IMG/VR virus record: IMGVR_UViG_3300045988_173323
DNA length: 64,000 nucleotides
From: a virus
Strand: one strand, 5' to 3'
Shown: piece after piece, positions 43,492 to 43,587 of the stretch
How positions within the stretch are numbered: position 1 is the stretch's first letter
How the letters are laid out: the number at the start of each line of letters is the position of its first letter
Notes under the pieces: model-generated
Seen by the model: the letters and a program-made list of their open reading frames with translations, nothing else
Told to the model about the DNA's origin: nothing
Databases searched by the model: none
Translations under genes and position numbers: made by a program

Positions 43492-43548
43492 AACCTTTAA
43501 ATAGGAGTCGAACCTATATTCTTTGTCTTACCAATTAGACGATTAAAG
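43492..43548 (-). ncRNA. tRNA-like mini-RNA lacking an anticodon arm; Y-RNA-like candidate
   Basis: Acceptor-like CCTTTAA/TTAAAGG, D-arm GTC-TAATTGGTAA-GAC, T-arm ATAGG-TTCGACT-CCTAT, and no anticodon arm (about 57 nt). It is 280 bp from the Ro60-like gene and next to a GC hairpin at 43553-43579. Confidence 0.35.
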
Positions 43549-43552
43549 GATA

Positions 43553-43587
43553 CGTCTGCGGCTTTCGCACATCCGCAGACTTTTATG
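43553..43587 (+). terminator. GC-rich hairpin + T-run (plus-strand terminator-like; on the minus strand it precedes the tRNA-like mini-RNA)
   Basis: GTCTGCGG-ctttcgcacat-CCGCAGAC followed by TTTTATGG. Confidence 0.4.

Follow-up and report, generated by a model that had tools for sequence, protein, structure and literature searches.

A tRNA remnant without anticodon arm lies among putative Y-like RNA modules upstream of a phage gene predicted to encode a Ro60-fold protein

The minus-strand element flagged upstream of the Ro60-like gene of this phage appears to be the remnant of a tRNA gene, in which the anticodon arm is gone and the acceptor stem, T arm, D arm and elbow are retained. We consider it rather probable, with no great confidence, that this relic has been kept as a cutting site at which RNase P and RNase Z would free the small RNA modules on either side of it, the adjacent GC hairpin constituting the 3' end of the upstream module. 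The relic belongs to an array on the minus strand in which about ten small RNA modules are interspersed among 32 tRNAs and which is oriented toward the Ro60-fold gene. The features discussed below are given by their positions in the window, i.e., the whole 64-kb stretch of DNA that was analysed; R1 designates our own covariance model of the YrlA-like RNA and the modules.

46059..46087, minus strand: predicted sigma-70-type promoter of the YrlA-like RNA (TTGAAA, 17-nt spacer, TG-TATAAT; 11 of 12 consensus positions, extended -10 TG)
45935..46053, minus strand: YrlA-like RNA, with stem AAGCAC/GUGCUU around ACAGCAA, V hairpin, T arm, acceptor-like stem-loop and D arm (Rfam YrlA, R1, RNAalifold, MFE)
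43852..43924, minus strand: module M0, ending 2 nt ahead of tRNA-Gly (R1, 32.7 bits)
43706..43775, minus strand: module M1, AAGACUC ... CAGCAA ... GAGUCUU, beginning 2 nt past tRNA-Gly (R1, 22.8 bits)
43610..43664, minus strand: module M2, 5' arm AGACAACA, then the invariant ACAGCAA, a variable loop and 3' arm UGUUGUCU (R1, 21.1 bits)
43581..43609, minus strand: M2 tail AGUAUCAUUAUCAAUCCCUUUCCAUAAAA, single-stranded, pyrimidine-rich, 29 nt, conserved in relatives
43554..43580, minus strand: GC hairpin (8-bp stem, 11-nt loop), proposed 3'-terminal stem-loop of M2 (sequence, MFE fold, relatives)
43550..43553, minus strand: GUAU linker from hairpin to relic, ending at the predicted RNase P site, which is the 5' end of the relic (sequence)
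43493..43549, minus strand: mini-tRNA relic, 57 nt (Rfam tRNA, orthologue series, paired stems in six lineages)
43417..43490, minus strand: module M3, AAGAGAC, ACAGCAG, loop, GUCUCUU, beginning 2 nt past the relic discriminator (sequence)
43383..43416, minus strand: hairpin between M3 and tRNA-Cys, placed like the flagged hairpin; its stem covaries in L081, L082 and L093 (related phages are numbered with L throughout)
41733..43214, minus strand: gene of the predicted Ro60-fold protein, 493 aa, Pfam DUF2828 + DUF7788/vWA (Pfam, PHROG, AlphaFold, Foldseek)

A previous reading based on the sequence only had described here a tRNA-like element of about 57 nt with acceptor, D and T arms (TTCGACT loop) and no anticodon arm, and such an element is indeed present on the minus strand at 43549-43493. 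The Rfam tRNA model (RF00005) scores it at 41.4 bits, over a gathering score of 29 (E 2.3e-5 for the entire 64-kb window), and model positions 1-71 fit its 57 nt with a single nucleotide replacing 17 anticodon-arm positions. Its arms follow the normal tRNA order (acceptor-5', D, T, acceptor-3', with free acceptor ends) and consist of a 7-bp acceptor CCUUUAA/UUAAAGG, a D arm GUCU-AAUUGGUA-AGAC and a T arm AUAGG-UUCGACU-CCUAU, followed by a U as discriminator and then by UU and the 5' arm of M3. The full set of elbow nucleotides (U8, A14, G18G19, G53, U54U55C56, A58, C61) is found. The element lacks the 7-nt anticodon loop and the anticodon; ARAGORN called no tRNA at this place, and the relic cannot decode because it has no anticodon arm. 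Its parent tRNA is ambiguous, the nearest being Arg-ACG-like or Cys-like. The retained acceptor/T/D/elbow half is the one read by RNase P, RNase Z and the CCA-adding enzyme in a tRNA. Used as an nhmmer query, the flagged element retrieved one diverged relative only. Folding had been proposed as a check: the single-sequence MFE fold of the flagged interval is exactly hairpin, acceptor, D and T, with only a modest z of -1.63 against shuffles.

The perfect 8-bp GC hairpin reported beside this element was recovered at 43580-43554, separated from it by 4 nt; its stem, GUCUGCGG / CCGCAGAC, comprises 6 G-C pairs and closes an 11-nt loop. The span 43492-43587 that had been marked for the whole does hold both hairpin and element, its end at 43587 taking in 7 nt beyond the stem. 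Eight relatives (L001, L002, L020, L021, L093, L105, L107, L108) display sequence changes in the stem, yet keep full pairing, and the hairpin of the relatives always lies 2-6 nt past UCCCUUUCC and 3-9 nt ahead of a tRNA or tRNA relic. In L020, L021 and L108, hairpin and upstream motif directly precede a genuine tRNA-Cys, and by eye a variant motif accompanies more diverged instances of the hairpin before tRNA-Gly and tRNA-Val. Wherever examined, the hairpin comes after the 3' arm and tail of the upstream module; consequently, it is better read as a local 3' stem-loop of that module, lying 5' of the acceptor, than as the Ro-binding stem formerly proposed, which would be built from 5' and 3' ends.

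Three other readings of this region were rejected. A small plus-strand ORF (43602-43778; 58 aa, hydrophobic), opened in the window by the conserved motif upstream of the hairpin, which on that strand resembles a Shine-Dalgarno plus ATG, varies in frame among relatives (M-I-L-D-N vs M-M-T-R-Q), meets an immediate stop in L002 and L108, and has no start in L001. The motif TTGTCTAGT-N-TTATCAA was considered as a phage promoter; it occurs a single time in the window, the consensus scan gave no sigma-70-like site, and it is better explained as the M2 3' arm plus tail. An intrinsic terminator was discarded for the hairpin, the minus strand having no U tract and the plus-strand T run being found in some relatives only.

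The neighbouring gene, said to be Ro60-like and to lie about 280 bp away, starts at 43214, i.e., 279 nt from the element on the same strand. Pfam assigns DUF2828 and DUF7788 and, weakly, VWA_2 to its product, with TROVE (PF05731) not matched; the gene falls in PHROG 850, an 'RNA-binding protein' family, and its mycobacteriophage homologues carry the annotation 'Ro-like RNA binding protein'. Sequence searches, including a profile search of PDB sequences, did not reach Ro60 and structure prediction was therefore needed. The AlphaFold model of the 493-aa protein (pLDDT 83.7, pTM 0.79) was compared with the PDB by Foldseek: the best 11 matches are all Ro60/TROVE proteins, full length, with E values from 9e-8 to 7e-5 and query-normalised TM scores of 0.39-0.56 (0.49-0.56 for the top ten). 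The MIDAS residues D303, S305, S307, T372 and D402 (DxSxS, T, D) are invariant in the family columns. The protein is thus predicted to adopt a Ro60 fold, a HEAT-repeat ring with a C-terminal vWA domain containing a MIDAS, and the description as Ro60-like is upheld by the model.

The flagged element had been taken for a YrlA-like Y RNA of this gene. Bacterial Y RNAs associated with Ro60 (Rsr) bear a motif GNCGAAN0-1G near their 5' end, as shown by Chen et al. in 2014 (PMC4201824), and YrlA is defined by a permuted T / acceptor-like / D order (V, T, acceptor-like, D) inside a terminal stem (PMC4201824). The Rfam YrlA model (RF02553), whose use had been suggested, finds nothing in 43380-43780 at E<=10 and matches over its full length at 45937-46050 (40 bits, E 5.5e-6). 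This score is below the gathering score of 69, as are those of the relatives (35-48 bits). R1 gives 108.5 bits to the RNA at 46053-45935, RNAalifold on 8 orthologues reveals compensatory changes in 16 of 23 pairs, and the single-sequence MFE fold agrees with the RNAalifold structure. The motif GNCGAAN0-1G is absent from this RNA, the aligned positions reading AGCACAU, and the motif of the group is ACAGCAA. The -10 element of the predicted promoter ends 6 nt ahead of the 5' arm. By its permuted arms, this RNA seems to be the bona fide YrlA-type RNA of the locus; it lies on the strand of the Ro60-fold gene, 2.7 kb upstream of it (hence within 4 kb) and 2.4 kb upstream of the flagged piece. The expectation of a YrlA-like RNA near the Ro gene was thus borne out, by another RNA than the one first designated.

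The terminal stem of the YrlA-type RNA (AAGAC.../...GUCUUG) and its ACAGCAA are common to about ten shorter modules located between the tRNAs, two of which, M2 and M3, flank the flagged element. Each module pairs its 5' end with its 3' end to make the stem (consensus AAGACAC ... GUGUCUUG), and the almost invariant ACAGCAA follows the 5' arm. The arms of M2 covary, being AGACAAGA/UCUUGUCU in L093 and L002 and AGGCAAG/CUUGCCU in L001, and L001 shows a compensatory pair for M3 (GAGAGAC/GUCUCUC). A rigid motif search with AGACNNNNCAGCAA gave nothing above chance because the spacing varies, and a loose script for stem and motif returned as many wrong-strand as right-strand matches (26 vs 26); R1 replaced both. 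All 137 R1 matches lie on the strand of the Ro-like gene. R1 gave no separate match for M3, which was covered by an overlapping spurious one. Among 130 distinct module sequences, in an alignment fitted to the model from which the covariation statistics come, the terminal stem is 98.5% paired with double changes in 7 of 7 pairs, a level reached by none of 500 shuffles; each position of ACAGCAA is kept in 104-122 of 125 sequences. These data argue for a genuine family of modules. An ARAGORN tRNA adjoins 53 of the 82 short modules (<=10 nt on the 5' side or <=15 nt on the 3' side), compared with 6-8% under random placement. The other 29 have no abutting called tRNA, and M1 and M2 are neighbours that no tRNA separates; consequently, tRNA punctuation cannot be the sole route by which module ends are made. 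Our full-text search of the literature on this protein family and on Y RNAs in tRNA arrays, incomplete in its coverage, retrieved no description of this RNA family.

The same position in related phages gives a graded series. It is occupied by a 73-nt cloverleaf in L093 (anticodon AGA) and L107 (anticodon AAA); the anticodon arm is broken in L002, absent in L001 and in the clade of the window, and only a bare hairpin, whose T loop is no longer UUCGAnU, is left in L105/L106. In L108, L021 and L020, tRNA-Cys itself stands there after the same hairpin. Such a series would be equally expected from the progressive decay of a redundant tRNA copy, and the relic could be a neutral pseudogene, functionless, with its conservation within the clade of the window due to recent common ancestry. 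The odd anticodons of the cloverleaves, the lack of an assignable parent and the further degenerate tRNA-like stretches in the array (45852-45923, 26.8 bits; 53626-53701, 23.1 bits) are in line with this explanation, which we nevertheless find unlikely. In six of six lineages, compensatory double substitutions have preserved the 7/7 acceptor and 5/5 T-stem pairs as the anticodon arm decayed, unlike what is seen in a freely drifting pseudogene. Within the clade of the window, tail, hairpin and relic are 97-100% identical, except for an 11-nt duplication just past the relic in L081/L083, whereas the loops of the adjacent modules share 32-51% identity, and neighbouring loops together with the tRNA-Cys leader hairpin have been replaced (32-61%). 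The stretch from the M2 3' arm through the relic is the most conserved block of the spacer, and the relic occupies the exact place that real tRNAs take beside other modules.

We thus favour the reading of the relic as a retained processing signal. The tRNA/module array would be transcribed as long precursors, in which the relic would act as punctuation like the real tRNAs surrounding it. Cleavage by RNase P at its 5' end would leave M2 with a protective terminal hairpin, and cleavage by RNase Z past the discriminator U would create the 5' end of M3. The freed modules would then be the probable partners of the Ro-like protein, in the way that Y RNAs are bound by Ro60. In the array, no tRNA of the 32 encodes a CCA, and 26 of their trailers start with U. 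A stable hairpin located 4 nt upstream of the predicted RNase P site could also hinder cleavage, and not merely protect the product. Use of a tRNA or tRNA-like fold as the RNase P/RNase Z signal that sets the ends of neighbouring transcripts is known from MALAT1-mascRNA and from mitochondrial tRNA punctuation. These systems are eukaryotic or organellar and mascRNA retains a small anticodon arm; the resemblance concerns the cleavage signal that we propose here. In common with ordinary phage tRNAs and pseudogenes, the relic sits in a 32-gene array, scores above the Rfam tRNA threshold and has cloverleaf orthologues.

An antisense role of the M2 tail, compatible with retention of the relic as a processing signal, was also considered. 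M2 tail and hairpin would form an sRNA, with the C/U-rich tail pairing to the ribosome-binding region in the Ro-like mRNA and the relic only providing the 3' end of the sRNA. The tail segment GUAUCAUUAUC is perfectly complementary over 11 nt to GAUAAUGAUAC, at -11..-1 of the Ro-like start codon, and only 4 equally good positions exist on that strand in 64 kb. The predicted duplex (-20.8 kcal/mol) is the second best among 87 ORF starts and was equalled by 4 of 2000 shuffles; matches of 7-9 nt are found in relatives at -8/-9 of their own start codons. However, the duplexes of eight relatives are no better than those of tail shuffles (56 to 655 of 1000 as good), the tail pairs better with another gene (35419-34580, -25.4 kcal/mol), its complement resembles a generic Shine-Dalgarno plus AUG, and any purine-rich ribosome-binding site would pair with such a pyrimidine-rich tail. 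This pairing is a weak lead only, and we hold the antisense role to be quite improbable.

It is very unlikely that M2, tail, hairpin and tRNA top half remain joined as one composite molecule, a non-permuted Y RNA with a 5' Ro-binding stem and a 3' tRNA-like effector. M2 does carry the stem and ACAGCAA of the family, the block from its 3' arm to the relic is the best conserved, and a Y-like stem enclosing a tRNA in normal D / anticodon / T order occurs in L059 (3643-3728); furthermore, the YrlA of M. smegmatis is a substrate of RNase P and of the CCA-adding enzyme (PMC4201824). Yet a 7-bp acceptor with a canonical T arm and elbow makes a standard RNase P substrate, the M2-type unit of L108, L021 and L020 precedes a functional tRNA-Cys that must be excised, and in L105 the tRNA part is down to a hairpin while M2, tail and hairpin are intact.

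Least credible, and in our opinion highly improbable, is the original proposal that mini-tRNA and hairpin themselves make up a YrlA-like Y RNA, with the hairpin as Ro-binding stem and the tRNA-like part as effector module: proximity to the Ro60-fold gene on the same strand, the tRNA-like module without anticodon loop, the covarying hairpin stems and a hairpin loop UGCGAAAG one base off GNCGAAN0-1G (the first G is missing; motif from PMC4201824) are outweighed by the D-then-T order with free acceptor ends and no permuted domain in a terminal stem, by orthologues that are full tRNAs or a genuine tRNA-Cys after the same hairpin, by the existence of the YrlA-like RNA elsewhere in the array, by a loop motif that is not on a 5' strand and not conserved in L093, L002, L001, L021, L107 and L020 (CGUGAAA, CGGAA, CGAUU, and none in L020), and by an R1 match of 21.9 bits that is composite and T-arm-driven, its 'terminal stem' being mismatched and ACAGCAA absent.

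Association of such RNAs with DUF2828 genes extends to distant phages, as Y-like RNAs adjoin these genes in phages of Mycobacterium, Enterococcus, Sinorhizobium and Escherichia. Mycobacteriophage Lewan, a complete G+C-rich genome whose Ro-like protein is 35% identical, has its three best full-model matches as three tandem modules 37-300 nt downstream of the Ro-like gene; its tRNA cluster is 20 kb away and does not hold the best module matches. Rfam gives no YrlA match on Lewan, although our own model finds the three modules. Enterococcus phage ZJGS3 and Sinorhizobium phage phiM7 carry full-length matches next to their DUF2828 genes, and in an Escherichia Felixounavirus the distance is about 1 kb. 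The surroundings of the DUF2828 genes in Vibrio phage D484 and Stenotrophomonas phage DLP6 yielded no modules. Of 76 IMG/VR matches to AGACACATACAGCAA with a complementary arm, 25 are accompanied by a DUF2828 gene within the stretch available, in every case on the same strand. DUF2828 proteins are encoded by at least 710 deposited phage genomes, the family being present in Felix O1-like, Listeria, Staphylococcus, Campylobacter, Enterococcus, Bacillus and mycobacterial phages.

The locus shares several traits with the bacterial YrlA/Ro60 (Rsr) system. Its RNAs lie on the same strand and within 4 kb of a Ro60-fold gene, the two ends of each module pair into a terminal stem and a conserved motif lies toward the 5' end, the RNA at 46053-45935 exhibits the permuted V / T / acceptor-like / D tRNA-like domain, and several Y-like RNAs share one locus as YrlA and YrlB do. 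Unlike in that system, the protein belongs to the DUF2828 family and has no Pfam TROVE match, ACAGCAA and the AAGAC/GUCUUG stem take the place of GNCGAAN0-1G, and the RNAs are about ten modules, mostly without tRNA-like domain, interleaved with tRNA genes. The Ro60 of Thermus phage phiLo, likewise a phage-encoded Ro60-fold protein, comes first among the fold matches of the window protein (PDB 9L5Y, 9KOP), and two or more Y-like RNAs, Yrl1 and Yrl2 in phiLo, adjoin the gene in both (PMC12135203). The phiLo Yrls were chosen by a CGAA motif, unlike the RNAs described here, and their report, whose authors proposed hijacking of the host PNPase, includes no tRNA array, tRNA punctuation or ACAGCAA motif (PMC12135203).

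By itself, a tRNA reduced to the half read by processing enzymes is no more than a modest curiosity, and the context of the flagged element carries more weight. Proteins that mostly bear no other annotation than DUF2828, 'vWFA protein' or 'RNA-binding protein' can now be given a predicted Ro60 fold, and their family travels with a recognisable RNA family that the Rfam YrlA threshold misses. A more general hypothesis, plausible but in our view a little short of probable, is that DUF2828 proteins form a divergent family of Ro60 and possess a Y RNA class of their own, as yet unannotated, defined by the AAGAC.../...GUCUUG stem and the invariant ACAGCAA. In tRNA-rich phages these RNAs would come in batteries of about ten with hypervariable loops, and RNase P and RNase Z would release them from the tRNA array, using tRNAs and stripped relics as punctuation. 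Such RNAs provide a very widespread phage protein with a candidate partner and a testable binding motif, and would link phage tRNA arrays to RNA quality control or repair of the Ro/Y-RNA type; genes for RtcB, polynucleotide kinase, RNA ligase and metallophosphatase are present in the neighbourhoods of the relatives. The multiple Y-like RNAs with differing loops suggest that one Ro-like ring could be tethered to different partners.

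The flagged element, as read from the sequence, lies on the minus strand and comprises:

43580-43554, minus strand: hairpin GUCUGCGG-AUGUGCGAAAG-CCGCAGAC (sequence)
43553-43550, minus strand: GUAU linker (sequence)
43549-43493, minus strand: tRNA-like element of 57 nt (sequence, Rfam tRNA model)

The Rfam tRNA model (gathering score 29) matches the 57-nt element at 41.4 bits (E 2.3e-5 over the whole window) with 71 of 71 model positions covered, 17 anticodon-arm positions being reduced to a single base. This confirms the tRNA-like RNA without anticodon arm proposed by the sequence-only reading, which also had the length (about 57 nt) and the acceptor, D-arm and T-arm segments right: the mini-tRNA exhibits a 7-bp acceptor stem, a D arm and a T arm with loop UUCGACU, as well as the tRNA-elbow nucleotides. 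The hairpin exists too, but ends at 43580 and not at 43587 as first placed. The minimum free energy (MFE) fold of the stretch is exactly the hairpin plus a three-armed cloverleaf, with an energy only modestly better than that of shuffles (z -1.63). ARAGORN did not call the mini-tRNA; the 32 tRNAs that it detected in the window all lie on the minus strand, from 43310 to 57737.

Eighty related viral loci were gathered via the Ro-like protein, and closer relatives via exact-protein look-ups. In the clade to which the window belongs (nine contigs), identity is 97-100% over the tail of the preceding short Y-RNA-like module (M2), the hairpin and the mini-tRNA, with the exception of an 11-nt duplication just 3' of the tRNA relic in L081 and L083; it is 32-51% in adjacent loops and 46-79% in the hairpin preceding tRNA-Cys. 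This duplication (L081 ~2700-2720, and L083) is a tandem copy of the relic's 3' acceptor strand (UUUAAAGGU). Distant relatives keep the upstream motif and the hairpin, after which varied elements follow:

L093, 2491-2563: full 73-nt cloverleaf, anticodon AGA
L107, 1128-1200: full 73-nt cloverleaf, anticodon AAA
L002: 70-nt form, anticodon arm broken
L001: form of ~48 nt without anticodon arm, D arm weak
L105/L106: small hairpin only
L108, L021, L020: genuine tRNA-Cys directly after the hairpin

The acceptor (7/7) and T-stem (5/5) pairs are kept in all six tRNA-like lineages, with several compensatory double changes, and the hairpin stems differ in sequence among relatives with pairing always kept. 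Based on this orthologue series and the kept acceptor and T pairing, we have little doubt that the flagged element derives from a tRNA. Its nearest tRNAs are ambiguous (Arg-ACG-like or Cys) and name no single parent. Sequence comparison indicates that the relic's decoding half is dispensable and that what is maintained is the half recognised by RNase P, RNase Z and the CCA-adding enzyme. The two full-length orthologues carry unusual anticodons, with A at the first position, and lack the long variable arm expected of bacterial tRNA-Ser.

A purely neutral pseudogene would account for the graded decay; however, neither the compensatory changes nor the local conservation fit, and we consider it unlikely. 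That the stretch from M2 to the relic is an uncut composite Y RNA is more doubtful still. The sequence-only reading, in which the element itself is a YrlA-like Y RNA, appears very improbable. YrlA RNAs are defined by a GNCGAAN0-1G motif near the 5' end, a permuted tRNA-like domain (V, T arm, acceptor-like stem-loop, D arm) and a location on the same strand as the Ro60 gene, at most 4 kb away (PMC4201824). In the flagged element the arms follow the ordinary order, D before T, and the acceptor ends are open; the Rfam YrlA model (RF02553) gave no match in 43380-43780, even at E<=10. The sole match of R1, a covariance model built from the YrlA-like RNA at 46053-45935 and its orthologues, is a 21.9-bit composite driven by the T arm, with a mismatched stem and without ACAGCAA. 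In all probability, the element is not a YrlA RNA.

RF02553 instead matches 45937-46050 (minus strand; 40 bits, E 5.5e-6), with the whole model covered. This RNA, at 46053-45935, starts 6 nt after a strong predicted sigma-70-type promoter (TTGAAA, 17 nt, TG-TATAAT). The RNAalifold consensus of orthologues from eight diverged loci contains a terminal stem, T arm, acceptor-like stem-loop and D arm, and 16 of its 23 pairs show compensatory changes; the same structure, with a V hairpin in addition, emerges from the MFE fold of the single sequence. YrlA-type RNAs of this kind carry an almost invariant ACAGCAA directly 3' of the 5' arm, in place of GNCGAA, and those of relatives score 35-48 bits with the Rfam model, below its gathering score. 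A tRNA-like stretch (45852-45923, minus strand, 26.8 bits) is a candidate for a second degenerate tRNA with a spacer role, since it directly follows the YrlA-like RNA and its acceptor stem is mismatched. In L059, a module at 3643-3728 (plus strand) with a Y-like stem (GGCGC.../...GCGCC UUG) and motif ACAGCUAA encloses a tRNA in normal D, anticodon, T order (Rfam tRNA 42.3 bits, positions 5-66), a non-permuted counterpart of the YrlA-like RNA that comes next. By eye, and from sequence alone, promoters and ribosome-binding sites look Firmicute-like as regards host type.

The neighbouring gene (43214-41733, minus strand) encodes a 493-aa protein with Pfam DUF2828 and DUF7788 and a weak vWA match; the Pfam search gave no TROVE match, and sequence and profile searches of PDB sequences did not reach Ro60. 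An AlphaFold model built on a 59-sequence alignment (pLDDT 83.7, pTM 0.79) was compared to the PDB with Foldseek, and the 11 best matches were all Ro60/TROVE proteins over their full length, among them Thermus phage phiLo Ro60, Xenopus and human Ro60 and Deinococcus Rsr (E 9e-8 to 7e-5; query-normalised TM-scores 0.39-0.56, the top ten 0.49-0.56). All sequences of the alignment share the MIDAS residues of the vWA domain. Homologues occur in at least 710 deposited phage genomes; those of mycobacteriophages are annotated 'Ro-like RNA binding protein', and PHROG 850 labels the family 'RNA-binding protein'. Because of these predicted-fold matches, MIDAS residues and annotations, the earlier designation of this gene as Ro60-like is supported at the fold level.

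R1 was run over the window and 86 loci. Fourteen of its matches are full-length copies scoring above 75 bits; more than 100 others are shorter, 58-100 nt, and keep the terminal stem and motif only. All 137 matches lie on the strand of the Ro-like gene. In their alignment (consensus A-AAGACAC-AU-ACAGCAA ... GUGUCUU-G) the terminal stem is 98.5% paired, with double changes at every pair, a value reached by none of 500 shuffles; these pairing statistics are inflated because the alignment was fitted to the model. Within the window, modules are confined to 43.4-55.6 kb, and four stand between tRNA-Ala and tRNA-Cys:

43924-43852, minus strand: M0 (R1)
43775-43706, minus strand: M1 (R1)
43664-43610, minus strand: M2 (R1)
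43490-43417, minus strand: M3 (read from sequence)

The flagged hairpin comes after M2 and its 29-nt tail, the mini-tRNA stands between M2 and M3, and M3 also ends in a hairpin (43416-43383), which abuts tRNA-Cys. In L081-L092, the M2 and M3 loops (43619-43644 and 43423-43469, minus strand) are swapped for unrelated sequence with arms and motif kept, among phages whose Ro-like proteins are 92-98% identical; in the same relatives tRNA-Ala (window 44023-44097) is replaced by tRNA-Val (L082, ARAGORN). To judge from the sequences, this looks like cassette exchange.

We propose that transcription of the array would yield long precursors. In all 32 tRNAs of the window the CCA is not encoded, and in 26 the trailer starts with U, the pattern expected of RNase Z substrates. 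A called tRNA borders one end of 53 of the 82 short modules (6-8% under random placement), and the relic occupies the same kind of position as those tRNAs. If RNase P cut at 43549/43550, the hairpin would become the 3' end of M2, and a cut by RNase Z after U43493 would free the 5' arm of M3. By analogy with Ro60-Y RNAs (PMC4201824) and the phiLo system (PMC12135203), the released stem-plus-ACAGCAA modules may bind the Ro-like ring, and their variable loops may engage other partners. On balance we lean towards this overall picture of array precursors, a relic serving as cut site and modules freed for the Ro-like protein.

The M2 tail (43581-43609, minus strand) is also suggested, from its sequence, as a possible regulator of the Ro-like mRNA at its ribosome-binding region: it holds an 11-nt perfect complement to 43215-43225 (minus strand), the Shine-Dalgarno-AUG spacer of the gene, and the predicted duplex (-20.8 kcal/mol) is equalled by 4 of 2000 shuffles and ranks second of 87 ORF starts. 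Matches in relatives, however, span 6-9 nt only, no better than shuffles. The other best predicted partners are the ribosome-binding regions of a MoxR-like AAA_5 ATPase (400 aa) and a DUF7192 protein (279 aa) encoded at 33370-35419 (minus strand; -19.8 and -25.4 kcal/mol, respectively). MoxR ATPases commonly pair with vWA proteins. A 58-aa hydrophobic ORF (43602-43778, plus strand), antisense to M2 and M1, has a good ribosome-binding site that is the M2-tail complement; it is probably no gene, as it is not conserved in relatives.

The RNA family accompanies the Ro-like protein in other phages. The G+C-rich Mycobacterium phage Lewan (L095), whose Ro-like protein is 35% identical, bears three tandem modules and then a terminator in the gap 3' of the Ro-like gene. 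These unannotated Y-like RNAs (R1; L095 4468-4733, record 42046-42311) read:

Module 1: [GGACGC]UAACAGCAA...[GCGUCC]AGU
Module 2: [GGACUCC]UACAGCAA ... T, acceptor-like, D ... [GGAGUCC]AGU
Module 3: [GGUCAC]UAACAGCAA...[GUGACC]AGU

In an unfiltered scan of both strands of the complete 76.7-kb genome, they were the only full-model R1 matches (ranks 1, 2 and 4 of five); the two partial-model matches lie in the tRNA cluster, 20 kb from the modules. Rfam YrlA detected none of the three. Full-length R1 copies were also found in Enterococcus phage ZJGS3 (69 and 55.5 bits), immediately 5' of the DUF2828 gene, in Sinorhizobium phage phiM7 (52.9 and 42 bits), beside that gene, and, as one copy in a tRNA array ~1 kb from the DUF2828 gene, in an Escherichia Felixounavirus (39.9 bits). 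Short modules lie upstream of this gene in Bacillus phage Thrax2 and, weakly matched by R1, in Listeria phage LP-124; in Vibrio phage D484 and in Stenotrophomonas phage DLP6, R1 found no module. The exact 15-mer AGACACATACAGCAA has at least 123 matches in IMG/VR. Among those listed, at least 76 have a complementary arm within 220 nt; in the stretch examined, a DUF2828 homologue accompanies 25 of these 76 on the same strand and none of them on the opposite strand.

Ro60 homologues and Y-like RNAs of phages have been described before (PMC4201824, PMC12135203, PMC7824862). In the searchable literature we found no description of the DUF2828 family paired with ACAGCAA-class YrlA-like and shorter RNAs, of such RNAs interleaved with tRNAs, or of a stripped tRNA as spacer. 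The flagged element by itself is of modest significance.

Relatives' genomes (L007, L010, L102; L097; L110) also carry tmRNA genes in their arrays and RNA-repair genes near the DUF2828 gene or elsewhere: an RtcB-like ligase in LP-124, a polynucleotide kinase and RNA ligase in Lewan and, in several, metallophosphatase and band-7 genes. Within the window's array, the GOLLD RNA model (RF02032) matches 54139-54594 (minus strand) over its full length between tRNA-Thr and tRNA-Gln; the score of 104.2 bits (E 6.4e-27) falls short of the gathering score, 150. Further sub-threshold tRNA-like stretches lie at 53626-53701 (23.1 bits) and 45033-45085 (21.4 bits), both on the minus strand. Directly upstream of tRNA-Glu (50719-50647), 50720-50769 (minus strand) holds three tandem copies of GAGAACCU followed by the T-arm-like GAGUUUGAAUCCCAG.
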